Virus record (IMG/VR): IMGVR_UViG_2690316131_000017
Direction: 5' to 3' (one strand)
Source: a virus
Lineage: Duplodnaviria > Heunggongvirae > Uroviricota > Caudoviricetes
DNA: 16,159 nucleotides
In this document: in pieces, positions 1 through 16,159 of the stretch
Position numbering within the stretch: the stretch's first letter is position 1
How the letters are laid out: every line of letters begins with the position of its first letter
Made by a program: the position numbers and the translations under genes
Notes under the pieces: model-generated
What the model was told of the DNA's origin: nothing
The model's database searches: none
What the model saw: the letters and a program-made list of their open reading frames with translations, nothing else

Positions 1-1461
1 ATGAAAAAATTACTGCGTCTTTTTTTCCCGCTCTCACTGCGGGTACGTTTTCTGTTGGCAACGGCTGCGGTAGTACTGGTGCTTTCGCTTGCCTACGGAA
101 TGGTCGCGCTGATCGGTTATAGCGTCAGTTTCGATAAAACTACGTTTCGGCTGTTACGTGGCGAGAGCAATCTGTTCTATACCCTTGCGAAGTGGGAAAA
201 CAATAAGTTGCATGTCGAGTTACCCGAAAATATCGACAAGCAAAGCCCCACCATGACGCTAATTTATGATGAGAACGGGCAGCTTTTATGGGCGCAACGT
301 GACGTGCCCTGGCTGATGAAGATGATCCAGCCTGACTGGCTGAAATCGAATGGTTTTCATGAAATTGAAGCGGATGTTAACGATACCAGCCTCTTGCTGA
401 GTGGAGATCATTCGATACAGCAACAGTTGCAGGAAGTGCGGGAAGATGATGACGACGCGGAGATGACCCACTCGGTGGCAGTAAACGTCTACCCGGCAAC
501 ATCGCGGATGCCAAAATTAACCATTGTGGTGGTGGATACCATTCCGGTGGAGCTAAAAAGTTCCTATATGGTCTGGAGCTGGTTTATCTATGTGCTCTCA
601 GCCAATCTGCTGTTAGTGATCCCGCTGCTGTGGGTCGCCGCCTGGTGGAGTTTACGCCCCATCGAAGCCCTGGCAAAAGAAGTCCGCGAACTGGAAGAAC
701 ATAACCGCGAATTGCTCAATCCAGCCACAACGCGAGAACTGACCAGTCTGGTACGAAACCTGAACCGATTGTTAAAAAGTGAACGCGAACGTTACGACAA
801 ATACCGTACGACGCTCACCGACCTGACCCATAGTCTGAAAACGCCACTGGCGGTGCTGCAAAGTACGCTGCGTTCTCTGCGTAGTGAAAAGATGAGCGTC
901 AGTGATGCTGAGCCGGTAATGCTGGAGCAAATCAGCCGCATTTCACAGCAAATTGGCTACTACCTGCATCGTGCCAGTATGCGCGGCGGGACATTGCTCA
1001 GCCGCGAGCTGCATCCGGTCGCCCCACTGCTGGACAATCTCACCTCAGCGCTGAACAAAGTGTATCAACGCAAAGGGGTCAATATCTCTCTCGATATTTC
1101 GCCAGAGATCAGCTTTGTCGGTGAGCAGAACGATTTTGTCGAGGTGATGGGCAACGTGCTGGATAATGCCTGTAAATATTGCCTCGAGTTTGTCGAAATT
1201 TCTGCAAGGCAAACCGACGAGCATCTCTATATTGTGGTCGAGGATGATGGCCCCGGTATTCCATTAAGCAAGCGAGAGGTCATTTTCGACCGTGGTCAAC
1301 GGGTTGATACTTTACGCCCTGGGCAAGGTGTAGGGCTGGCGGTAGCCCGCGAAATCACCGAGCAATATGAGGGTAAAATCGTCGCCGGAGAGAGCATGCT
1401 GGGCGGTGCGCGGATGGAGGTGATTTTTGGTCGCCAGCATTCTGCGCCGAAAGATGAATAA
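1..1461 (+). CDS. phoQ: sensor histidine kinase PhoQ (complete, 486 aa)
   Basis: ATG at 1-3, TAA at 1459-1461. Translation shows two TM segments flanking a periplasmic domain with an acidic patch (EDDDDAEM), an H-box ([11 protein letters not shown]) and HATPase boxes (DNACKY, DDGPGI, GQGVGL). Length and sequence match my recollection of E. coli PhoQ. Confidence 0.96.
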
Positions 1462-1476
1462 ATATGCCCTTTTATC

Positions 1477-1566
1477 ACTACACCAGGTCAAGCCATTGAT
1501 TTAATTAAATAATTATCATTGAAAAAGTGCCAAAAATCGCAAATTGACTACACCATTAACTACACC
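1477..1566. repeat. three direct copies of ACTACACC (1477-1484, 1547-1554, 1559-1566)
   Basis: Read directly from sequence. Lies in the AT-rich junction between the phoQ stop and the first island gene; candidate recombination or arm-type site. Confidence 0.4.
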
Positions 1567-1582
1567 GTTCGGTGCACTGTAT

Positions 1583-1608
1583 GAAACAACGTGGAACAAA
1601 TAGACACA
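1583..1608 (+). promoter_or_regulatory. copy A of the AACAACGTGGAACAA motif (1585-1599) with a degenerate third AACAA box
   Basis: The 15-mer is identical to the one at 8980-8994 and one mismatch from the one at 14848-14862 (opposite strand). Confidence 0.45.
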
Positions 1609-1977
1609 AGAAATATACAGGCGGGTAATCTTTCCAGGGGGAAGCGCACCAATTCATGAGGGGCGTTAATGTCGATATGGGGATCCCCATAACGGGGCTA
1701 CCGGATTTTTTTCCGGTTAACATTTAATCAGGCTGGTGGGTTTTACATACCCTTGATCACCGTAATGATGATCCAGATGTGCACCTTTTCCACCAATGGC
1801 GGAAAAGCTCCAACCGTAACGATGATCGCTATGGTTGCCTCGATGGTCTGCGTGGTCATTATGACCATTCAGCCAGTGACCTTAATCAGAATTTTTCGCT
1901 AAAAAATGACGTTGGCCACGTCATCCTGATAGCACAAAATCACGTCGATTTTTAATGAACGGTTAAACCGTCTTTTT

Positions 1978-2421: not shown

Positions 2422-4083
2422 TTACACCCCGCTAAATTCTTCCAGTTTCTGGCGGTGGCTGTCGCTTATATCAAAAGCAAAATCCTCATGCTCTGCCTGG
2501 AATGTACCAAACGCCATCAGCGCCGCCACGCTCGGGTCTATCTTGTTCGGTGATTTTTTCTTGTTCGGCTTGATATTGGCGTTCGCGTCACTCTGCATCA
2601 CGACGTTACTCATCGACCAGGACAACACCGGATCGCCACGATGCACAATCACCCTGCGGTTAACAAAAACTTCGAACGATTTCGCCGCCGGACTGAATCT
2701 GAGGTAGGTTTGCGGGAACGGCTCCACCTCAAAGCCTGCCCCCTGTAATTGCGTCCTGAGATGCGTGGCGTTCCACGTATCAAAGCCCACCAGCCTGATA
2801 TTAAATTTCTCCGCATCCTGCATGATGTCATCTCTGATCCGGTCGTAATCAATGCAGTCACCTGGCGTTGTGCGTATCCAGCCCGCTTTAGCCCACTGGC
2901 GATAGACAGCGCGGTTTTTATTGGCGGGGTTCTGTAGCTGGAACTCCGGCAGATAATGACGGGAAACCAGCATGATATTTTTACCGACCGGAAAGGCATA
3001 GCACACGCTGGAAATATCGCTGGTTGATGATAAGTCCAGCCCCGCGTAACACTCCTGCCCGTGTAAATCTTCCTCCGTGAACGTTCCGGCACACTCAGCC
3101 CATGCGCCGTTACCCATCCACGGGGTAGCCCCCTGGCACCAGATATTAAATCGCTTTGTCATCATCTCCACCCATTGCGACGGAATACCCCGCGCTTTCT
3201 GGATGGTTGAGGCCAGTTTTTCACGATCCACGGAAACATCGATGTTAGGGTTAGCCTTTATCCACATCGCCGGATCATCAACCTCGTTTTCGTCGTCCAG
3301 TTCGTAAATCAGTACAAAAATTGAATCGTTGACCTCTTCGCCGTCCAGGATCTGGCAGCAATAATCATAGTGCTGCTTACAGGCTGAAACGACGTTACTG
3401 CCCGATGTGGTAATGGCAAATAACAGCCCTTCGGGACGTGCGCCCATCCCCAGCTCAAGCGCGGAATAAACGCCGTTATCGGGGTGTAGGTGGTATTCGT
3501 CCACGATGGAAAGGCTTGGGTTTGTGCCCTCGATGGTTGCCGCTTTTGCTGCCAGCGGCTTTAACAGGCTGTTGCTTTTCGGGTGCATCACCTTGTGGGC
3601 CTGAATATTCACCCGCCTGCGTAACGGTCGGGATAAAAGGCACATCTGACGCGCATCATCAAAAACGATCCGCGCCTGGTCACGGCTCACCGCTGCGGTG
3701 TAAATATCCTGCTGCCCGTTCTCCATAATCAGAAACCAGTTAGCCAGAATCGCGGCGGTCGTGGATTTCGCATTTTTGCGCGGCACTTCGATAAAGGCGC
3801 TCGTGTATTTGCGCCGTCCGGTGGCCTTAACCTTAAAGCCGAGGATGCACGCAAAGGCGAACTGCTGCCACGGCTCCAGCTCAATGGGTCTGCCACGCAT
3901 CGGCCCTTTTACGTGCGGGCACACCCTGGAAAAGGCAATAAACCGCTCCACAACCTCACGATCGAACGTGTAAAGGGGGCTTTCAAGGTCCGAAAAGTAC
4001 CGTTTAACGGCCTGTTTCAGCCGTTTACAGGCCGGAATTTTGCCCGTTTTTACGTCTTCTGCGTACTTATTCCAGGCGGTCAA
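2422..4083 (-). CDS. terminase large subunit (HK97-type)
   Basis: 553 aa with an N-terminal ATPase P-loop-like segment (PRKNAKST) and a C-terminal nuclease-type region with acidic residues. The ORF-track start at 4083 is TTG with a GAGGA Shine-Dalgarno, overlapping the TerS 3' end by 17 nt. Confidence 0.88.
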   Translation of the reverse strand: MTAWNKYAEDVKTGKIPACKRLKQAVKRYFSDLESPLYTFDREVVERFIAFSRVCPHVKGPMRGRPIELEPWQQFAFACILGFKVKATGRRKYTSAFIEVPRKNAKSTTAAILANWFLIMENGQQDIYTAAVSRDQARIVFDDARQMCLLSRPLRRRVNIQAHKVMHPKSNSLLKPLAAKAATIEGTNPSLSIVDEYHLHPDNGVYSALELGMGARPEGLLFAITTSGSNVVSACKQHYDYCCQILDGEEVNDSIFVLIYELDDENEVDDPAMWIKANPNIDVSVDREKLASTIQKARGIPSQWVEMMTKRFNIWCQGATPWMGNGAWAECAGTFTEEDLHGQECYAGLDLSSTSDISSVCYAFPVGKNIMLVSRHYLPEFQLQNPANKNRAVYRQWAKAGWIRTTPGDCIDYDRIRDDIMQDAEKFNIRLVGFDTWNATHLRTQLQGAGFEVEPFPQTYLRFSPAAKSFEVFVNRRVIVHRGDPVLSWSMSNVVMQSDANANIKPNKKKSPNKIDPSVAALMAFGTFQAEHEDFAFDISDSHRQKLEEFSGV

Positions 4084-5449: not shown

Positions 5450-5784
5450 TTTTCCGCGCCCTCACGACAAAGAATTTCAAGGCGTGTCCTGGCGACATCC
5501 GGCAACGGCTGCCCGATGATATTCAGTACACGCCCCGCCAGCGGCCCCGTACTGACCTTTATCCGGCTGGTGGCGTTGATGTCCTTCCGGTACCGTATCC
5601 AGATCCTTACGGTACCAATCGCCAGCTCTGCGCCCGATGAAATGGCCTCCTTGCTGCTGATCATGTTCACGCTTGCCCAGAGTGTGTGACCGTCCTCCCA
5701 CGTTTCGAGTATTTCGCCCGTCATGGCTCTGGTCTGTTTCAGGGTCTGAATCGTTATCCTGTCACGCAGTCGCCCTATGTTCAT
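5446..5784 (-). CDS. phage head closure / head-tail adaptor protein
   Basis: Pattern RITIQ ... WASV ... IRYR ... ATSRI is typical of head-tail joining proteins. I prefer the ATG at 5784 (ATGA overlap with the portal stop) to the track start at 5826. Confidence 0.75.
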   Translation of the reverse strand: MNIGRLRDRITIQTLKQTRAMTGEILETWEDGHTLWASVNMISSKEAISSGAELAIGTVRIWIRYRKDINATSRIKVSTGPLAGRVLNIIGQPLPDVARTRLEILCREGAEK

Positions 5785-6992
5785 TCCGTTTTTTCTCCCT
5801 CGCTGATTTTTACTTCCTGTTTCCATGCCTGGCTGAACTCATCACCACCATCACGCGGTGACAGTCCTTCACGTTCGCGGGCTTCGTTCGGGCACATAAC
5901 GCCGGATTTGATGCCGCGCTCATAGGTGGCAAAGCGTTCGCCAGGTGTGGCCCGTAACAGGTCCGCGCTGTCAAACTCCACCTGATACCGGATACCAGGT
6001 ACAGGCGAGGCCACCAGCAGGGCGTTTTTTATCTGCTGCTCAAAGTTCGCCAGCCACGGGCGCATCGTCATGGTGAGAAATGCGCGGCTTGCCTCGCTGA
6101 AATTGCTGTAGGTGCTGTTGCTGTATTCCTGCAAAAAAATCGGCGAGACGTTGAACATTCGGGCGATGTCTTCAATGGTAAAGCGACGGGAGGCCAGCCA
6201 TTCAGCATCCTGATTACTCATGCCCAGCTGCTGATAGCTCATACCCCCTTCAAGGATGGGCGTTTTTCCGGCGTTTCTGGCCCCTTTGTAGCGTTCCAGT
6301 GCGGCTAATGCCTGTTTGCCCTTCACGCCGTCCAGCCATTCGCCTGACGTGATAACCCCTGCCGCCATCATGCCATCACGCATCACGCTCGCGCCGTGGC
6401 GTTGTTGGGCCAGCCCAAGCCCCAGCGATTCGCGGCAGATGGTTACAGGTGAGCGCCCCATAAAGCCGTCATCCGTGGAGTAACGAAGGTGAAGTACTTC
6501 CCACGGTAAATAGTTGTGGGTGTTTCCGGTGTAGGCGTCAGTGATGCAATAGCGCCAGTTGTGTTCTCCTGTCTGCTCCACGTTCACCGACTGCGGCGGG
6601 TAAGGATGTAAAGCCGCCGGAAAACCATCACGCCCCCACTGAATAACCGCATAAGCATTACCGTTTAACAGGCAGTGGCGGATCATCATTCGCTTAAACT
6701 AGTAGGGGGTTTGCCATGCGTTCGGGCGCTCGTTGAAGATGTGATCGACCGGATGAGAATCAAGCCACTCGCGGGCCTCCTTCCCCTTCTCATTGCGTAC
6801 CAGGTACAGGTAGCATGGCATAGTAGCCACCGCCTCAGAGATGACCGTAACGGCGTTCATGACGGCAGGCAGTGATTCCGCTGTCCCCGATGATACGTAC
6901 TCACCCGCCCCCGTGTTCGATGTGCCGGCCAGCGCCATAAATTCATCAAGCGTCATGCTGCGCTGCTCTTTTTTTCTTCTGAAAGGCCACAT
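5781..6992 (-). pseudogene. HK97-family portal protein interrupted by one in-frame TAG (codon 98, plus coordinates 6699-6701)
   Basis: Track ORFs 6699-6992 (97 aa, portal N-terminus AVMNAVTVISEAVATMPCYLY) and 5781-6689 (302 aa, portal core with FTIEDIARMFNVSP) are in the same frame, separated only by TAG and three sense codons. Combined length ~403 codons is portal-sized. Confidence 0.8.
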
Positions 6993-7605: not shown

Positions 7606-8763
7606 TTAATCGTCGTCCTGTGGCAGTTCCAGAATCTTGATCGCGTTCGAATCCACCACGCCACCGCCTAAATATTTCTGCGTGAAAATTTTGATGAAGC
7701 CCGGCTCTGTGAGGTTGTCCGGTCTGGTGCGAACACCTGTTTCGTGATCAACAATGTAGTAACCGCGTTTGAAGTCACCCAGGGCAATAACGTTATCAGG
7801 CATAAACTCCAGATATTCGACCGGAAGGCCCAGCAACGTATCAGGATCACCCGCCTGTAAACGGTCACGCCAGATGTAATCACCGTTCGCGTTCTTCACC
7901 TTCTGGAGTTTTGCCGCCGTCGTGGAGTTAACCACCCAGACCGCGTTTTTGCGGTATTTTTTACGTAATGCAAATTTCAGGTCGATCAGCGGGTCCGCAG
8001 ATGTCCACGCCAGAGATTCGGAAGGTTTAATTACCTGCAACGTACCAAAATCACGCTCTTTGTCGTTCTTCTCTGCACGGGGTACGGATAAAAAGCCTTT
8101 TGCTTTTTTGTCACCGTCGCCCACAACCAGATCGCTTTCTTCGGTTTCCGTGAAGGTGTCGCCAATCTCGCCCGTCAGCCATGAAAGGATGTCCACATCG
8201 GAAAAATCCACGATTTCCTGTGTGGTGCGCGGGTACGCATAGACCGGATACAGCTTAATGCTCACCTCGTTAATCTGCGGGGTGCTGGTCTGTTCGCGTG
8301 CCTTACCCTCTTCACCGTGGTTAACGGTCGCACCGCCAGCGGAAACAAGCTGCTTAAACTCGTTGCTGCTGATTTTCTTCACGGTACAGATGCGGCGCAT
8401 GGTGGATTCATCCGCCAGCATTCGCATGATTTCGGTGTTCAGTTCGGGGATAACGGTATAACCACCATCAGCGGGAACGCCTGTACTTAATGCGCGGGTT
8501 TCACCCGTCAGAATGTAGTTTCGTAGTTCTGCGGGGTCAGTGGTCTGACTGCTTTTACCTGGCTTGCTGCGCTCTTCGTCTGCAATGGCTTCAAGGCGGG
8601 AAATGTCTTTATCGAGGGATTCAGCTTTAGCGCGTAATTCGTCAAATTTTGCGCCCTCAGCATCGTTAAGACTGCGGTTTTCTTTTTCAGCGTTCTCCAG
8701 CATGTCGCGCATCTGATTTTTAATGGCGGTTTTCTGCTGGCGTAATTCGATTATTCTCGGCAT
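7606..8763 (-). CDS. major capsid protein, HK97 fold, with N-terminal coiled-coil delta (scaffold) domain
   Basis: N-terminal ~100 aa is heptad-rich and charged, followed by an HK97-like capsid body. No separate scaffold gene. First ATG at 8763; the track ORF extends to a TTG at 8808. Confidence 0.85.
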   Translation of the reverse strand: MPRIIELRQQKTAIKNQMRDMLENAEKENRSLNDAEGAKFDELRAKAESLDKDISRLEAIADEERSKPGKSSQTTDPAELRNYILTGETRALSTGVPADGGYTVIPELNTEIMRMLADESTMRRICTVKKISSNEFKQLVSAGGATVNHGEEGKAREQTSTPQINEVSIKLYPVYAYPRTTQEIVDFSDVDILSWLTGEIGDTFTETEESDLVVGDGDKKAKGFLSVPRAEKNDKERDFGTLQVIKPSESLAWTSADPLIDLKFALRKKYRKNAVWVVNSTTAAKLQKVKNANGDYIWRDRLQAGDPDTLLGLPVEYLEFMPDNVIALGDFKRGYYIVDHETGVRTRPDNLTEPGFIKIFTQKYLGGGVVDSNAIKILELPQDDD

Positions 8764-8978
8764 AAAAAAAAGTCCTGGGGTTAAGTAAGGAACTCCAGGA
8801 CGCGGCAAACACTCAACCGTTTTTCATAAGGAAATCAGCAATCGCACCGATCGTTTTCCCGCCTGGTAATGAATATTGGCGAGCACATTAACAGGCGGGA
8901 AAGTGGCCCCAGCGTCCTGGCACCACGGGCGAGAATAATCATGATTCAGTTCGGGTAAAATATGCCGATCCGCTCAGT

Positions 8979-9008
8979 GAACAACGTGGAACAACCACGA
9001 ACAAATAA
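8979..9008 (+). promoter_or_regulatory. three 10-bp-phased AACAA boxes overlapping the -35 of the packaging-operon promoter
   Basis: GAACAACGTG GAACAACCAC GAACAAATAA. On the minus strand the proximal box (TTGTTC) sits 16 bp upstream of TATTTT (8957-8962), about 190 bp upstream of the capsid ATG. Confidence 0.5.
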
Positions 9009-9018
9009 TTTACAAAAA

Positions 9019-9046
9019 ATAACAAAAAGCCGGATTGCTCCGGCTG
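9019..9046 (-). terminator. intrinsic terminator (stem AGCCGGA/TCCGGCT, loop TTGC, U-tract on minus strand)
   Basis: Perfect 7-bp stem followed on the minus-strand RNA by UUUUUGUUAUUUUUU; 19 bp downstream of the stop of gene 9065-9289. Confidence 0.75.
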
Positions 9047-9064: not shown

Positions 9065-9289
9065 TCAGTCTCTGATCCCTTTCAGAAATTCTATCAATGC
9101 ATCTGTCTGTTCAGGATTTACTGCCAGCATTTCACCGGATAGCGCGCAACGAACAAAACCATGATGATCCTTTTCAATCAGCGCCCCCGTTTCCAGAAAT
9201 GCGCGGTAATCAGTGATATTCATCGTCTCCATGTTGTCAGCATGGTATTTATCACGCTGTTTAAGTATCTCATCAAATTTCATCGGCAT
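9065..9289 (-). CDS. hypothetical protein (74 aa) in a terminator-flanked cassette
   Basis: ATG at 9289 with a GAGGAA Shine-Dalgarno 8 nt upstream (the track ORF runs further up to 9367). No family recognised. Confidence 0.5.
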   Translation of the reverse strand: MPMKFDEILKQRDKYHADNMETMNITDYRAFLETGALIEKDHHGFVRCALSGEMLAVNPEQTDALIEFLKGIRD

Positions 9290-9373
9290 TGCGTTTTCCT
9301 CTGTTGTGTCTGTTTGTTTCAGATAGTAACTATGCCGGACCGTGACGAAAAGCCAGTAGTGCTCCATACCGTT

Positions 9374-9399
9374 TCAAATGACGCAAAAAAAGCCGGATT
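9374..9399 (-). terminator. intrinsic terminator, near-identical copy of the one at 9019-9046
   Basis: Same 23-bp sequence aaaaagccggattgctccggctg; on the minus strand the stem-loop is followed by a U7 tract. Lies 32 bp downstream of ORF 9431-9592. Confidence 0.75.
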
Positions 9400-9430
9400 G
9401 CTCCGGCTGCGTGGTGTGGTTCTGATATTC

Positions 9431-9903: not shown

Positions 9904-9953
9904 TTATTTTCACCCCCCTCGTTTAAAAAGTTTTGAGTTGTGCCTCCCCCCCC

Positions 9954-10172
9954 TCTACCCATCTACCCGAATGCTCATCATGTCAGTAATGGCGCGGCTT
10001 TCAGCGGGTAGATAGCTTTTTTGGCTCCTCTACCTGCCGTCTACCCTGCTACCTGAAATTGATAAAATCAGGTAGAAGAGGTAGAGAGGTTTTATTAGCC
10101 TTCTACCTAGCCCTCCACCCACTTATCATGTTGAATAATATGCGTTTATCTCATTCAGGTAGATGGGGTAGA
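9954..10172. repeat. replication-origin iteron field: at least 11 copies of TCTACC(C/T) / GGTAGA in both orientations with AT-rich spacers
   Basis: Copies near 9954, 9962, 10006 (inverted), 10029, 10040, 10049, 10071 and 10080 (inverted), 10102, 10158 and 10166 (inverted). Immediately downstream of the primase stop at 10189; flanked by AT-rich tracts and a C8 homopolymer at 9946-9953. Confidence 0.65.
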
Positions 10173-10188
10173 GGGCTTTTACAAAAAA

Positions 10189-11943
10189 TTATAAAAACGC
10201 GTCACAATCATCCGTTGTAATTGCGTTGGTCTGCGTTACTCCCTTAACTTTCCGCGTAATATATTCATGTCCGTAAACTTTTGCCGCTGGCTTCATGGCC
10301 TTGCTGAACTCAGCCACGTTTAGCGGTTTGCTCCTGCCTGCGTATGCCATAAACGCCAGATAGACGCGGTAAAGGCTGTTCCTGGTCGTGTACTTCACTG
10401 AATCGCCACCGCCACCCATCATCAGGCCGCGCGCTTCCTCCAGAAAATTCAGGAACTGGCAAAACTCAATAACCGGATCCGTCTGTTGCTTTATTGCCAG
10501 TGCTTCATCACCGTCGCGCTGTTCCAGGAGTAAAGCCCGTGCCTTTTCAGGGTCGGCAAAGTTCGCCAGTAATCGGCGGATAATCACAGGGATTTCAGCC
10601 GCAATCTTTTCCGGTAGCTCCCTGTCTTTTTCGGCCTCACTGACGATATTGTCGAAACGGAAAATCACGCGACGACGTGCCACACCTCCGGCCCGTTCGG
10701 TGAATATCATCGGGTTGTTGTTGGTCGCCAGCACCACCGCCCTGATTACCGCCGTGAAACGCTTTTCATATTTCGGGTTAATTTCCACGGGGTCGCCGCC
10801 CGTGATTTTCTTGATGCCCGTTCCTTCGCCTGTATATTTCGGCTGGTCTGCCAGGACGATAAGACGACTCCCGACAACCTGCGCACGTCCACCAGCATCA
10901 TCAAGCGATGTCATCTCAGCGCTTACCGTGTTCTGTTTCCCTGCCAGAAGGCTGGCTATGTGTGTGAATGTACTTTTACCGCTCCCGCCGTCTCCGGTGG
11001 CCTCAATAAACATCTGCCAGTCGTACCGGTTCGCCATAATCATGTACAGCGCGGCACATATACGCATCATCTTGCGCGGGTCTTTTCCGGCTGCGTGCTC
11101 AAGCCATTTATGAAAGTTTGGCGCGTTGTCGCGGATATTCTCCCCTGGTGCTGGTGGCGTGTACTCAATGCCGTTATGCGTGGTGATCCAGTTCTCCGGC
11201 GTGTGCGGGGAAAATTCCCCCGTTTTCAGGTCAAGCACACCATTGGCGAACGGCAGCAAATCGCCGGACGGTTCGCCCATTGGTTCGGCAATAACTTTTA
11301 ACGCTTCCACGGTGTTATTGATTACGCGCTTGCTGAAAGTGGCCCTGTGCTCTGAATAGATCGCCACCATTTCGCGGCTCAGTGCCATTGTGCTGACCGG
11401 ACACCATACCCCGCCGCGCCATACGTGAACGATTTCACTTTCAGGATGTACGCAAACGCCATCAAAGCGCCCGGCAAGCAGCTGCGCGCGCTCACTGTCC
11501 GCCATCTGCGAAAGTTGCGCCTTTTGCTTTACCGGAAGCTCAATGACCAGACCATCAGAAAGATTCTGGCGCTCACGGGCCAGATATTCGCGCCAGTTCT
11601 CCACCTCCTGAACGTGCATTCCCTCAGGGTAAAAATTTGCATCCTGTACACCTGCCGCCGCCAGCTTCTGACCAATCGCCTTTATCATTACAGGCTCAAG
11701 ATGTCCGGCCCTGAATATGCGTACTGATTTTCGGCCTTCCGGCACAATTTGCAGCTTATCCAGTTCGGATAACTGCTGCTCCCCAAGCCACACAGGAGGC
11801 TCATTATCTCCGGCCATACGCGCGTCATGTTCCTGCCATTGTTTTGCGTGTGACCAGGCATCACTACCCGCAAAAATAATGACTTCTGTTTCTTTGTGTT
11901 TTATGCCGCGTGACTGCTGTTTTACGTTCGGTGCCAGTTTCAT
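10189..11943 (-). CDS. P4-family primase/helicase (replication initiator)
   Basis: 584 aa with a Walker A P-loop (GDGGSGKST) in a D5/P4-type helicase region preceded by a primase-like N-terminal domain. ATG at 11943 overlaps the upstream stop (ATGA). Adjacent to the iteron ori. Confidence 0.88.
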   Translation of the reverse strand: MKLAPNVKQQSRGIKHKETEVIIFAGSDAWSHAKQWQEHDARMAGDNEPPVWLGEQQLSELDKLQIVPEGRKSVRIFRAGHLEPVMIKAIGQKLAAAGVQDANFYPEGMHVQEVENWREYLARERQNLSDGLVIELPVKQKAQLSQMADSERAQLLAGRFDGVCVHPESEIVHVWRGGVWCPVSTMALSREMVAIYSEHRATFSKRVINNTVEALKVIAEPMGEPSGDLLPFANGVLDLKTGEFSPHTPENWITTHNGIEYTPPAPGENIRDNAPNFHKWLEHAAGKDPRKMMRICAALYMIMANRYDWQMFIEATGDGGSGKSTFTHIASLLAGKQNTVSAEMTSLDDAGGRAQVVGSRLIVLADQPKYTGEGTGIKKITGGDPVEINPKYEKRFTAVIRAVVLATNNNPMIFTERAGGVARRRVIFRFDNIVSEAEKDRELPEKIAAEIPVIIRRLLANFADPEKARALLLEQRDGDEALAIKQQTDPVIEFCQFLNFLEEARGLMMGGGGDSVKYTTRNSLYRVYLAFMAYAGRSKPLNVAEFSKAMKPAAKVYGHEYITRKVKGVTQTNAITTDDCDAFL

Positions 11944-12936: not shown

Positions 12937-13159
12937 GGTGTACCCCTCCGCATTTTTTTTCGTTAGAAATAAGCGTTCTTCTTTCCTGTTCATCGCTCAG
13001 GAATACGCAGACCTCACCGCTAAGGCGTTTAAGTAAGCCGATGATTGCCCCTGATTCGCTGTCGGTCATCATGCCAGGGTAATCCTCTGCCAGTGCGCAA
13101 ATGACTTCGATTTGGTGGGCGCGTTCTGCTGCCTGTTGTAGTGTGATTTCCTGGCTCAT
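12926..13159 (-). CDS. hypothetical protein (77 aa from internal ATG; track ORF to 13225)
   Basis: ATG (MSQEIT...) overlaps the stop of the upstream gene (ATGA). Coordinates follow the ORF-track frame. Confidence 0.45.
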   Translation of the reverse strand: MSQEITLQQAAERAHQIEVICALAEDYPGMMTDSESGAIIGLLKRLSGEVCVFLSDEQERRTLISNEKKCGGVHHVQ

Positions 13160-13356
13160 AAGCCTACCCCCTGACGAATACGGGCGGCGAATACCATCAC
13201 GCAGCCAGCCGGAGATTGCTGGCATGCTTCCTGTTCGCTGGTGGCCTCAATGGTAATCACGCGCGGTTGTGCCGTGCTCAGGGCGATAAAACGCCAGATG
13301 TATTTATTCAGGTTGTGCGAGTCCCGCCCTTGCGGGTGTGTGGTATGATTTCTCAT
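13156..13356 (-). CDS. hypothetical protein (66 aa), first gene of the leftward early operon
   Basis: C-terminal 66 codons of the 387-aa track ORF. ATG at 13354-13356 with a GAGGT Shine-Dalgarno, directly downstream of the operator-bearing promoter. The rest of the long ORF is judged spurious. Confidence 0.4.
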   Translation of the reverse strand: MRNHTTHPQGRDSHNLNKYIWRFIALSTAQPRVITIEATSEQEACQQSPAGCVMVFAARIRQGVGL

Positions 13357-13453
13357 AGCTACCTCGATACTTTCGCTATCGTTGGTGGTTAGACGCCCTG
13401 CATGTGTTGCGAGCACTGCGGGGCGTTGCTTAATTTGAGTGACAAAACTCAAA

Positions 13454-13540
13454 CTGTGCGCACAGATTAAAATCATGTGTGCGCACATGTCAATACTTAA
13501 CATCTCATTTTTTTTGCTGTATTGTGTGCGCCCATAAAGT
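13454..13540. promoter_or_regulatory. divergent promoter/operator switch with TGTGCGCACA palindromes
   Basis: Perfect 12-bp palindrome CTGTGCGCACAG (13454-13465), 10-bp palindrome TGTGCGCACA (13478-13487) and a half-site TGTGCGC (about 13525-13531). Leftward promoter read on the minus strand: TTGACA (13488-13493), 16-bp spacer, TTTAAT (13466-13471). Candidate rightward promoter TTGCTG / TAAAGT. Confidence 0.55.
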
Positions 13541-13561
13541 CCATTTAAGTGAGGTGCATCA

Positions 13562-13759
13562 ATGTCTAGCGGTAACACAAACAACAAATCAGCAAAGAAA
13601 AATATTCGATTCCCGCATGAGCTTATAGATGGGATTGATGCCAGCGTTGAACAAGAAAAATTAACTAATCCTAGTGCTAATTTTTCCGCATGGGTCTTAG
13701 ATGCCTGTGGACGCAAATTAAAATATGAACAGCGCCGGAAGGCCAAAGAATCAGAATAA
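13562..13759 (+). CDS. small DNA-binding-like protein (65 aa), candidate island repressor; possibly YlcI/YnfO-like
   Basis: ATG at 13562 with a GTGAGGTG Shine-Dalgarno. The segment KKNIRFPHELIDGIDASVEQE ... NFSAWVLDACGRKL has a strand-helix-helix pattern suggestive of a ribbon-helix-helix fold. The YlcI/YnfO (DUF3950) resemblance is from memory and unverified. Confidence 0.55.
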   Translation: MSSGNTNNKSAKKNIRFPHELIDGIDASVEQEKLTNPSANFSAWVLDACGRKLKYEQRRKAKESE

Positions 13760-13816
13760 TCACTATCAGCGCCGTGGTGTGAGGAACTACGGCGCATTTC
13801 TTTACAGGAGTAGACA

Positions 13817-14002
13817 ATGAACAACGAAGAATTACGGGAAATCGCATTATCCATACTTGAAAGACAGGTAGAAAAAAAATTAAGAGAAATGGATGAAATG
13901 CCTGACCATGAACAGGAAGCAAGGCCAAAAAGATTTGCCCTTGAGGATTTTCTTAAAAATTGCCCAAGAAAGATGAGATCGTGGCGTTGTTGTCCGCCCT
14001 GA
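13817..14002 (+). CDS. hypothetical protein (61 aa)
   Basis: ATG at 13817 with a GGAG Shine-Dalgarno; co-directional with the upstream gene and followed by a strong terminator. Confidence 0.5.
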   Translation: MNNEELREIALSILERQVEKKLREMDEMPDHEQEARPKRFALEDFLKNCPRKMRSWRCCPP

Positions 14003-14079
14003 TGACAGATTTGCCAACCAGCCAAAAATGTGGCATCGTTGTCGATACATAGTGTAATCAACATGTATATCATATTTTT

Positions 14080-14106
14080 GCGACCATCATAGGTCGCATT
14101 TTTTTT
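14080..14106 (+). terminator. intrinsic terminator (GCGACC-atcata-GGTCGC followed by T8)
   Basis: Perfect 6-bp GC-rich stem followed by an 8-T run; about 80 bp downstream of the plus-strand gene pair. Confidence 0.7.
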
Positions 14107-14376
14107 GCCTGTAATCCGGCAATTGTGGCGCTTCTTCACACAGTTGATATAATTCCAATGCTCATATTTATTTTTTGTGCAGCAGGTTAATCGTTCACAA
14201 AGGCGCTCAGGTAACTGGGCGCTTTTTGTTATGCCTGAAAAACCCCAATTTTGTTGTTTTTCAGTTTCACCAGGGCGAACGAATCCCCGCCTACGTTCTG
14301 GCGTATATTCAATCTTCATGGTTATAGCTCTGTGTTCAGATGATTGATGTGTGGCGGCTGCGTGCCGCCAGCGTGA

Positions 14377-14565
14377 TTAATGAACTGCCTTGCAGCTATC
14401 CTTCCAGGCCAGAACCTCGGATAAAGACCAGCCAACGGAACGACCGCCAAGTTTACGACGTGATGGGAATTGTCCGGCCTTTTCCAGGCGGTAGCGACAC
14501 GTACGGCTAAGGCCGGTTAGTTTTTCGCATTCTTTTTCACGTATAAACCGATCAGTGCTTAACAC
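14377..14565 (-). CDS. alpA: AlpA-family transcriptional regulator / excisionase-like protein
   Basis: 62 aa; the motif LTGLSRTCRYRLEKAGQFPSRRKLGGRSVGWSLSEVLAW matches the AlpA/excisionase winged-helix family. GTG start at 14565 with an AAGGGGG Shine-Dalgarno 5 nt upstream. Confidence 0.8.
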   Translation of the reverse strand: MLSTDRFIREKECEKLTGLSRTCRYRLEKAGQFPSRRKLGGRSVGWSLSEVLAWKDSCKAVH

Positions 14566-14837
14566 TATTGCCCCCTTTCGTTTCTTAAAGAGTCATCAGG
14601 TGTCTTATTGTGTCGTATTGTTCCCGCTAGAGTGATAAATGGCAAATACTGAGGATGTATGATTTACAGAAAATGAAACAGTAAGAATAAAATCTTTTAA
14701 ATTCACGTTAATACAAAGGCATAAAATATTGTTTCATGCCTTTTTTCTCGCTCTTTAAAGAGTGATTCGCTAGTGTATAAAAAACCAGTAACGCATTAAA
14801 AATCAGCCACTTATAAATCCGTACGCTTTTTCGCCTC

Positions 14838-14912
14838 TTGTTCGTAGTTGTTCCACATTGTTGCTCATTGTTGCACGTTGTATCTGTTCGCATATACAGT
14901 ATGCGCATACTG
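14838..14912. promoter_or_regulatory. five tandem 10-bp units beginning TTGTT (14838-14887) plus a 16-bp perfect palindrome CAGTATGCGCATACTG (14897-14912)
   Basis: Units TTGTTCGTAG, TTGTTCCACA, TTGTTGCTCA, TTGTTGCACG, TTGTATCTGT at exact 10-bp period. The second unit pair equals the 15-mer motif with one mismatch. Lies between the int stop (14930) and the alpA start. Confidence 0.5.
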
Positions 14913-14929: not shown

Positions 14930-16159
14930 TTATTTTCTTCTGGCTACTGGTAGCGTGGTTACGTTTTCATGTGTTCCCGCCAGTATCCCTAACCGCTCCG
15001 TCCACATATCCAGCGCATTGCGTTTAGCATCCAGATAACGGGAATGATTATAAACTCGCTGCATTCCTGGCATCTGGTGGCCTGTAAGCTGCTCCACGAC
15101 GTGAGAATCCACGCCTAAATCGTTCAGCATCGTTGTAAAGGTGCGCCGGATGTCATGTAGTGACCAGTGAGGGTGATTTAGCCTCCTGTGCGCTAATCTG
15201 CCGTACTGCGACACGCTTGTTTCCTGTTTCACTTCCCCCAGCAATAAACCCGTGTGCCTGTTCTGCTCCACCAGCTGCGTGACGAACGGCAGTATTGCTT
15301 CCGGTATGGGCCGGAATATTGCCACCTTCGTTTTGCTGTGTTCTTTCGGCACGGTCCAGAGCATTTCGGTAAAATCCCACTCGCTGATCTCCGATAACCT
15401 CAGTTCTACCGTCCGGCATCCGAACACAATCAGGAGGCGGATTAGCGCGATGTAGTAGGGGGAGAATATTTTTTTGTCCAGTGCCTGCAATAATTCGCCA
15501 AGTTCTTTGTTGCTTAAGACACGCTCGCTTATATCCGGTTTTTTCCCAACGTCCGCCACACTCATATCATCAAGAACGTTGCTGATTGCATAGCGCCGCT
15601 TCCGGCAGAACTTAAGCGCCTGCTTGCATGTCTGTAGCAGGAACCCGGCGGAAACAGGGGCTTGCTTTGCCACCCGATCAAAACAGGCCAGCCAGTGCCG
15701 TAGCTCGCATTTATCCAGCGGCATAGGGCCAATGTGCTGTATTACGTGATTATTTAGCCGCTTTTTCAGTGGGTCATAATCCACACGGTTTTCCTTTGCG
15801 TACGACTCAAGCCAGTAGGTGAGCGTATCACCAACCGTTACCGGCTTTAACGCTTCCTGTACGGTGTAATTCATCTCATGACGTGGATTTTTCCCCTCAG
15901 CCAGCCATGCGCGACACTGGGCGGCTTTTTCCCTGGCTGATTTCAGACTCAGATCAGGATAATTTCCCAGCTTAATGCGTTCCGGTGGTGCCCCCCTTCC
16001 CGTTCCGGCCCTGTAAGTGAAATACCAGGTTAAAAGGCCGCTGGTTGAATGCCTGACGCTCAGATTTCCACCGTCATTAAGAAAGGCTGTTTTTTGGGCG
16101 GGTGTGCCGTTGATTTTCCTTAGCAGTGTATCGCTCAGTTTGTTAAGTGCTCTGCTCAT
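14930..16159 (-). CDS. tyrosine integrase with N-terminal arm-binding (DUF4102-like) domain
   Basis: 409 aa. N-terminal arm-binding-type pattern (LSDTLLRKI ... LNDGGNLSV ... WYFTYR ... IKLGNYPDLSLKSAREKA) and a C-terminal catalytic region with R..HxxR..Y-type residues (HDIRRTF ... HSRY). The ATG is the last 3 nt of the window, so the upstream region and att site are not visible. Confidence 0.9.
   Translation of the reverse strand: MSRALNKLSDTLLRKINGTPAQKTAFLNDGGNLSVRHSTSGLLTWYFTYRAGTGRGAPPERIKLGNYPDLSLKSAREKAAQCRAWLAEGKNPRHEMNYTVQEALKPVTVGDTLTYWLESYAKENRVDYDPLKKRLNNHVIQHIGPMPLDKCELRHWLACFDRVAKQAPVSAGFLLQTCKQALKFCRKRRYAISNVLDDMSVADVGKKPDISERVLSNKELGELLQALDKKIFSPYYIALIRLLIVFGCRTVELRLSEISEWDFTEMLWTVPKEHSKTKVAIFRPIPEAILPFVTQLVEQNRHTGLLLGEVKQETSVSQYGRLAHRRLNHPHWSLHDIRRTFTTMLNDLGVDSHVVEQLTGHQMPGMQRVYNHSRYLDAKRNALDMWTERLGILAGTHENVTTLPVARRK

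Follow-up and report, generated by a model that had tools for sequence, protein, structure and literature searches.

Phased TTGTTC boxes before the capsid operon of a capsid-forming phage-inducible chromosomal island: a conserved array and candidate AlpA operator

The stretch of DNA analysed here (16,159 nucleotides, IMG/VR record IMGVR_UViG_2690316131_000017, Caudoviricetes; hereafter the window) is a capsid-forming phage-inducible chromosomal island (PICI) of the EcCIEDL933 type, lying between roxA and phoQ. All island genes are carried on the minus strand, and the only sizeable gap ahead of the capsid/packaging operon holds an array of TTGTTC boxes. Our main finding is that this array is very probably an operator controlling the capsid operon, that is, a protein-binding site maintained by selection, as judged from its comparison among related islands. 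We infer three further points, namely the island protein AlpA as the binder, activation as the effect and the position of the transcription start.

On the minus strand, positions 9004..8979 read TTGTTCGTGG TTGTTCCACG TTGTTC, followed by 16 nt (8978..8963) and by TATTTT (8962..8957). Direct reading of the strand confirmed this arrangement, which had been reported in an earlier first-pass annotation of the same DNA, together with its statement that the boxes are one helical turn apart: box 1 (9004..8999), box 2 (8994..8989) and box 3 (8984..8979) share a GTTC core and start at 9004, 8994 and 8984, with a period of 10 bp. The pattern TTGTTN5TTGTT, with at most one mismatch, is found 13 times in the window versus 1.58 expected and a maximum of 5 over 200 shuffles. 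The exact phased TTGTTC triple occurs once (never in 300 Markov simulations), and phased triples with at most one mismatch per box occur three times, compared with a simulated mean of 0.013. The phased array is not due to chance. Two weaker boxes overlooked by the first-pass annotation extend the phase upstream: TTGTAA (box 0, 9015..9010), which lies inside the family-wide anchor TGTAAAT (9014..9008), and TTGTTA (box -1, 9025..9020), which overlaps the T-run of a terminator. The five boxes thus start at 9025, 9015, 9004, 8994 and 8984, with spacings of 10, 11, 10 and 10 bp, and contain at least three direct repeats at the 10-11 bp distance seen in excisionase-type operator arrays. Immediately before the array is a strong intrinsic terminator of the upstream genes (9028..9045, minus strand; AGCCGGAGCAATCCGGC / AGCCGGAGCAATCCGGCT followed by the T-run), and therefore the capsid operon needs either its own promoter or read-through. 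The terminator is itself duplicated exactly over 23 nt (9024-9046 and 9387-9409), and the two copies bracket a 363-bp cassette with a 74-aa ORF. L014, a related island, lacks the cassette, which suggests insertion of a moron.

To put the array in context, we scanned species genomes and viral contigs with the capsid protein and collected more than 85 related loci, with capsid identities of 64-100%. In nearly all of them, TGTAAAT(T/A)AT is located about 215-250 nt before the capsid ATG and is followed by three boxes phased at 10 bp; the core of this anchor, TGTAAAT, is kept in nearly all of more than 80 loci. The boxes read TTGTTC three times in E. coli-type islands and in islands of the type represented by L031, TTTGTTC, nnTTTC and CTGTTC in class III, and T(C/T)GTAC, TTTACC and ATTACC, followed by a covarying terminator hairpin, in class II. 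Among E. coli-type relatives the boxes are invariant except in L025, in which box 3 is TTGCTC. The comparison of the window with L031 is the most informative one. The anchor and boxes are identical at 38 of 40 positions, whereas the flanks match at only 14 of 40 positions upstream and 5 of 17 downstream, and third-codon positions of the capsid gene are 50% identical; a blastn comparison with L031-type E. coli islands aligns only a patch of roughly 55 nt that contains the boxes. Because such identity persists amid random flanks and half-changed third positions, the anchor and boxes are, on the evidence of these alignments, under strong purifying selection. The spacers between the boxes behave differently. 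The first-pass annotation had pointed out that CGTGG and CCACG are exact reverse complements; this is true in the window, but the L031 type has CCAGG in place of CCACG and the spacers of class III bear no resemblance to these, so that the complementarity is not conserved and probably incidental. A hairpin formed by the complementary spacers was ruled out on the same grounds.

Placement of the promoter was assessed by a position-weight matrix (PWM) scan of 62 non-redundant relatives. According to the first-pass annotation, box 3 doubles as the -35 element of a promoter TTGTTC-16-TATTTT (hereafter P1; -10 at 8957..8962, minus strand; PWM score 7.7), which would put the boxes at -35 to -60. A second candidate (P2; minus strand, score 8.6) has its -35 element TTTACC at 8959..8954, a 16-nt spacer and the -10 element TATTCT at 8937..8932, with a predicted start at about 8926-8924. 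The place of P2 relative to the anchor (+53..55 and +75..77) is held in E. coli-type, L031-type and class III relatives, in which its equivalents read TTTACA or TTTACT, 16 nt and TATCTT or TATGTT. The resulting consensus is TTTAC(A/T/C) for the -35 and TAT(C/G/T)(T/C)T for the -10, again separated by 16 nt. Both P1 and P2 have A at position 2 and T at position 6 of the -10, a poor -35 and a 16-nt spacer, as expected of an activator-dependent sigma-70 promoter; both are weak, and neither passes a stricter consensus promoter scan. In class II loci the highest score goes to a third placement, in which the -35 directly adjoins the boxes.

We consider use of P2, with a start at about 8926-8924, that is, about 25 bases downstream of the earlier placement, somewhat better than an even bet on the basis of this conservation. 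Boxes 3, 2 and 1 would then be centred near -57, -67 and -77, with the array spanning about -54 to -79, and the placement of the boxes at -35 to -60 is accordingly not supported by the conserved promoter. Use of P1, with a start near 8950 and a regulator overlapping the -35, is the less likely geometry, although it does have points in its favour: as a weak promoter, TTGTTC-16-TATTTT is plausible (PWM score 7.7, against 8.6 for P2), and in Gilliamella loci and class II relatives the best-scoring -35 comes immediately after the boxes, much as the -35 of PintS follows the TorI sites. Three observations count against it. L031-type islands, with identical boxes, read TGTTTA at the place of TATTTT, which is not -10-like; the conserved TTTAC fits a -35 with a conserved TATNTT located 16 nt downstream; and the conserved RNA structure described below begins at 8926, not at 8950. 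Some other placement is less probable still. Thus, of the activator-dependent late promoter put forward in the first-pass annotation, the need for a promoter of the operon's own and the selection on the boxes stand, whereas the P1 geometry is lost in L031-type relatives. Two other roles for the anchor were discarded. TGTAAAT as a -10 or -35 element does not account for the data, because the T at the last position of the -10 is not conserved and no conserved partner hexamer exists; an inverted repeat made up of TGTAAAT and the TTTAC that follows it is better explained by TTTAC being a -35. Late promoters controlled by Ogr of phage P2 or delta of phage P4 have a consensus TGT-N12-ACA dyad centred near -55. 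Direct reading of 9030..8930 revealed no TGT-N12-ACA, and nothing else points to the helper-phage late activator that had been suggested as the regulator.

The predicted P2 start coincides with the first base of a hairpin that opens a structured and conserved 5′ untranslated region (8764..8926, minus strand). The leader comprises this 5′-terminal hairpin (8926..8903, loop GACG), a 17-bp long-range helix (8902..8886 with 8871..8855) and a last hairpin (8801..8772), after which a run of eight T residues (8771..8764) abuts the capsid ATG. In the window, the last hairpin buries AGGA. The window leader folds at -70.9 kcal/mol (z = -4.7), and in an alignment of 25 leaders 12 of the 24 consensus pairs display compensatory changes, the GACG loop being invariant and the long-range helix strongly covarying. 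No Rfam family matches the leader.

The array before the capsid operon is not the only one in the island. Phased 10-bp TTGT/GTTC arrays are also present at the attR core, between int and alpA, before alpA and before the 74-aa ORF, and these are 77-92% identical copies, spacers included. The distal array between int and alpA (14838..14882, plus strand) has five to six phased boxes (TTGTTC, TTGTTC, TTGTTG, TTGTTG, TTGTAT and so on), and 25 nt of the capsid-operon array are a 92% inverted copy of its first part (14838-14862). The proximal array (14608..14628, plus strand) is located 30-58 nt before the start of alpA and reads GAACAATAC GACACAATAA GACAC on the coding strand, and a two-box array (9304..9318, plus strand) stands directly before the 74-aa ORF. 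The attR-arm array TTGTGTCTAT TTGTTCCACG TTGTTT (1584..1609, minus strand) is about 20 bp from paired GGTGTAGT repeats, and over 35 nt the capsid-operon array is a 77% direct copy of this arm (1585-1619). In relatives, the attL arm just upstream of int carries a matching array. Ends of the islands were defined by comparing islands at two chromosomal sites, roxA/phoQ and, for L014, tqsA; the true ends reach beyond the apparent 21-bp core or direct repeat (window 1462-1620; L001 2640-2820; L014 1440-1616), and the crossover core is likely to be about GGACATATTT (GGGCATATTT in the window, near 1470).

Both att arms of L001, L014, L015 and L016 contain three to four TTGT boxes followed by two GGTGTAGT repeats. 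In the window, exact GGTGTAGT is confined to the att arm, with three copies within 1477..1566 on the minus strand (1484..1477, 1554..1547 and 1566..1559). The repeat changes as the integrase diverges: it is GTGTGGTCAG in L023 (integrase 65% identical to that of the window), GTGCAGTCA in L082 (55% identical) and GGTGTATCAC in L084, while boxes with the GTTC core persist beside all three. Comparison of these arms suggests that GGTGTAGT is probably the arm-type site of the integrase. Taking it as such, the boxes, a repeat word that stands beside the arm-type sites and recurs at promoters, would be the sites of a protein serving both recombination and promoters.

AlpA of the window (14377..14565, minus strand; 62 aa; PF05930, Pfam E-value = 5e-17) is a reasonable candidate for such a protein. 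Its structural model (pLDDT 86.5) matches best the GIsul2 excisionase in the PDB (8c3t; E-value = 2e-6, TM-score 0.79, 39% identity) and also the excisionase RdfS of an integrative and conjugative element (8dgl), Pukovnik Xis and winged helices of the MerR type; the predicted fold is that of an excisionase-type winged helix. Recombination directionality factors bind cooperatively and head to tail to direct repeats one helical turn apart, and several of them also regulate promoters (PMC7498355); RdfS, for instance, activates promoters (PMC11963761). The window AlpA is 94% identical to AlpA of EcCICFT073, in which the int-alpA region holds a six-box array. Induction of EcCICFT073 depends on its AlpA, which switches on its own promoter as well as downstream genes (PMC6092414), and in capsid-forming PICIs an alpA mutation abolishes induction and transfer (bioRxiv 10.1101/2022.09.08.507074). 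In the literature searched we found no paper defining the DNA site of AlpA or the promoter of the capsid operon in capsid-forming islands, no 5′ ends for the capsid-operon transcript, and nothing usable on PDB 8c3t or on the sites of P4 Vis. At least five sequence groups can be distinguished among the AlpA-like proteins of the related loci. Three of them, groups A, B and C, which are 64-78% identical and have similar recognition helices, all come with GTTC arrays at the att arms and near alpA, and the GTTC core, constant across these three groups, is also found in group D arrays. Comparing the box word with the AlpA allele for covariation was therefore limited by a core common to all groups. 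Taken together, binding of AlpA is the best reading of the boxes, resting on sequence patterns and on analogy with excisionases, and we hold it tentatively, at slightly short of an even chance. The first-pass annotation had named AlpA as the obvious regulator; its candidacy gains from the near-copies that flank the att core and precede alpA and from the excisionase fold, while the binding itself is a matter of inference.

Arrays near alpA take other forms in some relatives. In L060 (about 1990-2050) and L074 (about 3300-3360), which encode group C AlpA, a hairpin with a T-run, TGCTCTCGAACCTTAGCGAACGAGAGCATTTTTTT, stands just before alpA, and its loop and stem hold two CGAAC boxes 10 bp apart, so that a terminator-like structure overlaps putative AlpA sites. 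L057, L058 and L067 have up to nine AACAGCA-type and seven GGTTCAT-type boxes 250-450 nt upstream of alpA, all 10 bp apart and arranged in two blocks of opposite polarity. Judging from these long arrays, helical phasing ahead of alpA is frequent but not general in this satellite family; other loci have palindromic operators in their place.

Several observations weigh against AlpA as an activator acting through the boxes. The identical TTGTTC triple is kept in L031, L032 and L035, which encode a 92-aa AlpA of group D/E and show no other TTGTTC array. The anchor TGTAAAT, the least GTTC-like of the boxes, is the best-conserved part of the element and accompanies AlpA of every group. The spacing of box 3 and the conserved -35 changes by 2 bp from E. 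coli-type to L031-type islands. EcCICFT073 has no such array before its morphogenesis operon, and a Pint fusion in that island was left unchanged by AlpA (PMC6092414) despite a four-box array just upstream of int. Finally, the known relatives of the arrangement, TorI and Apl, repress rather than activate. The place of an array before the morphogenesis operon is taken in EcCICFT073 (L016, 11000-11280) by a long palindrome, ATCATGATTATAATCATAACTGGATGAACATCCAGTTATGATT, and its late genes may therefore be controlled differently.

Some of these points would fit a binder other than AlpA, a factor tied or common to capsid modules, such as a host architectural protein acting at the AT-rich anchor (IHF, Fis or the RNA polymerase alpha subunit), a PerC-like protein or the small conserved phrog_1957 protein. 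We regard this as improbable, though a serious rival. The anchor and box 1 are kept in nearly all of the more than 80 loci across five AlpA groups, boxes 2 and 3 vary with the capsid module and not with AlpA, the L031-type islands retain the boxes without any other array, and genes for PerC-like and phrog_1957 proteins are often directly upstream. A capsid-module factor, however, leaves unexplained why E. coli-type islands repeat the same 25-35 nt at the att arm and at alpA. As for the individual candidates, L014 has the boxes without a phrog_1957 gene, and the anchor fits the IHF consensus at only 7 of its 9 specified positions. The two kinds of binder might also be combined in a hitherto undescribed, family-wide late-control cassette, an arrangement to which we give a similarly low chance: the invariant anchor and phased boxes would be read by a second factor common to capsid modules, with AlpA sites superimposed in E. 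coli-type islands, and would be followed by a weak promoter and a structured leader, whose 5′ GACG hairpin and the hairpin near the start codon would control how stable the capsid message is or how well it is translated.

Another alternative accepts AlpA or a different excisionase-type protein as the binder but gives it a repressive or purely architectural effect, delaying capsid expression or shaping the DNA. Arrays of this kind mediate repression by TorI at PintS and by Apl at pR/pL, and if P1 were used the proximal box, being the -35, would be occluded. On the other hand, every reported test has shown AlpA to activate PICI genes, the presence of AlpA is the condition under which the capsid operon has to be switched on, and neither candidate promoter is strong by itself; this alternative, though a serious one, is rather unlikely. 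Poorer yet are the chances of an array without a function of its own, either a copied piece of an att arm or a junction sequence kept by frequent exchange of modules. The array coincides exactly with a module boundary (in blastn, the aligned part of many genomes begins at query position 401, at the terminator) and shares 77% identity with the attR arm over 35 nt, as noted above; yet the 38/40 identity stands out against random non-coding DNA nearby and synonymous sites of which half have changed, and the phased three-box architecture is kept with different words in other lineages. Least likely is a role of the boxes as arm-type sites bound by the N-terminal domain of the integrase, which the first-pass annotation had listed for binding tests. 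Arm-type sites can be phased triplets (as in P'1-P'3 of lambda), the same word is found in both att arms and the window integrase has an arm-binding domain, but alpA and the capsid operon, 1-7 kb away from any att core, have TTGTTC arrays as well, and GGTGTAGT and its variants, which are confined to the att arm, paired and different in diverged integrases, fit the role instead. Iterons of a replication origin were ruled out, as the origin-like cluster after the primase gene uses TCTACC in both orientations, and a packaging site of the cos/TerS kind is unlikely because the same array is also present at att and alpA; the usual place of cos is the HNH-terS gap.

Returning to AlpA as the activator, the following course of events may be envisaged. 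A helper phage would switch on alpA, and AlpA monomers would occupy the GTTC-core repeats head to tail, one per helical turn. One and the same word would serve the att core in excision, the region upstream of alpA in autoactivation, and the capsid operon. The AlpA-bound array might bend the DNA and help RNA polymerase at the weak downstream promoter, most likely TTTACC-16-TATTCT, with the boxes at about -57, -67 and -77. Transcription would begin at the conserved hairpin and pass through the structured leader of 160 nt before reaching the capsid gene. Gram-negative PICIs have AlpA as their master switch; if GTTC arrays are its sites, one small protein would couple excision, its own amplification and capsid production, and knowledge of the site would allow AlpA regulons to be predicted across thousands of islands and inducible tools to be built from satellites. 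If confirmed, the box arrays would supply the missing AlpA site and the promoter of the capsid operon, for which the corrected promoter placement and the conserved leader RNA provide concrete, testable fragments.

The gene map of the window agrees with its assignment to the group of which EcCIEDL933 is the prototype (bioRxiv 10.1101/2022.09.08.507074). The roxA/phoQ insertion site is common to the window island, O157:H7 strains and CFT073, and E. coli OkiPb01697 is identical to the window across the late half of the island; a search for DNA similarity to phages returned none. From the integrase end, the minus strand encodes a P4-type integrase (int, 16159..14930), AlpA, and a D5-type primase (11943..10189). 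Directly after the primase gene (at about 9950-10190) follows the dense cluster of TCTACC iterons, which is probably the replication origin of the island. Between the iterons and the capsid gene are small ORFs, including a PerC-like one and the 74-aa ORF (9289..9065, minus strand, ATG at 9289; phrog_1957, function unknown). The capsid/packaging operon begins with the gene for the HK97-type major capsid protein (7606..8763, minus strand) and continues with genes for the prohead protease, portal, head completion protein, connector, HNH protein, TerS and TerL; phoQ occupies 1..1461 on the plus strand. Directly after alpA is a 387-aa ORF (13156-14319, minus strand) without a Pfam match, the last 90 residues of which match phrog_6196, annotated as a transcriptional repressor; its region differs between the window and the otherwise matching L001 island. 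The portal gene (5781-6992, minus strand) has an in-frame amber at codon 98 (CAG to TAG, window 6699-6701), while the portal gene of L001 is intact and otherwise nearly identical, with seven differences in 1212 nt. The window copy of the island may be unable to make capsids, unless the amber is read through by suppression or reflects a sequencing error. Four GTGAC boxes exactly 10 bp apart (GTGACGGAGA GTGACAACCA GTGACACACC GTGACAAAAA) are found on the minus strand at about 1978-2012, downstream of terL and some 430 bp from the att core; the terminase small subunit or another DNA-binding protein is a possible candidate for their binder.

The closest known parallel to the array is the set of TorI sites in KplE1 (CPS-53) of E. 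coli K-12. Sites I3-I4-I5 at attL/PintS read ttacaGTTCGtcatgGTTCGcttcaGATCGTTGACA and, like the boxes of the window, are three in number, recur every 10 bp and have a GTTCG/GATCG core (compare ttGTTCGtgg ttGTTCCacg ttGTTCActg in the window). The three sites are 2 nt apart, have cores GTTCG, GTTCG and GATCG, and are located directly before the -35 of PintS (PMC2951348). Their binder TorI, a winged-helix excisionase of roughly 65 aa, has excision sites as well (PMC2951348). It matches the AlpA Pfam family only marginally (E-value = 0.12). The two cases differ in that TorI represses an integrase promoter inside attL, whereas the window array is 7 kb from att and before the capsid operon, and AlpA is a known activator.

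Apl of phage 186 and Cox of phage P2 belong to a different sequence family, act between face-to-face early promoters and mainly repress, unlike the three to five boxes before the late structural operon of a satellite described here. Cox of phage P2 reportedly also activates the PLL promoter of phage P4. Both proteins are at once excisionases and transcription regulators, recognise one type of direct repeat, spaced 10-11 bp, both at att and at promoters, and bind cooperatively and head to tail, bending the DNA (PMC7498355). Likewise, RdfS, RdfS1271 and BldC of Streptomyces are winged helices of the excisionase fold that oligomerise along DNA, one per turn, bind attP and promoters, and activate some of the latter (PMC11963761); RdfS, however, has an extra N-terminal helix and recognises no clear sequence motif, in contrast to the sharp GTTC-core repeat of the window.

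The AlpA proteins of the E. coli PICIs EcCICFT073, EcCIEDL933 and EcCIMP1 represent the same protein and island type as in the window, and act as autoactivating master activators induced by the helper phage (PMC6092414, PMC11773190, bioRxiv 10.1101/2022.09.08.507074). The AlpA antiterminator of Pseudomonas aeruginosa has in common with the window only the name and a terminator-like hairpin downstream of the promoter: it is an eight-helix, Q-like protein of more than 140 residues that uses a single GGGACG element between -35 and -10 (PMC9371919). It is unrelated to the 62-aa winged helix of the window, and a Q-type antitermination site was ruled out accordingly. The window array would join the known excisionase-type operator arrays, and what it adds to them is a candidate operator for AlpA and a corrected map of the late promoter in capsid-forming satellites.

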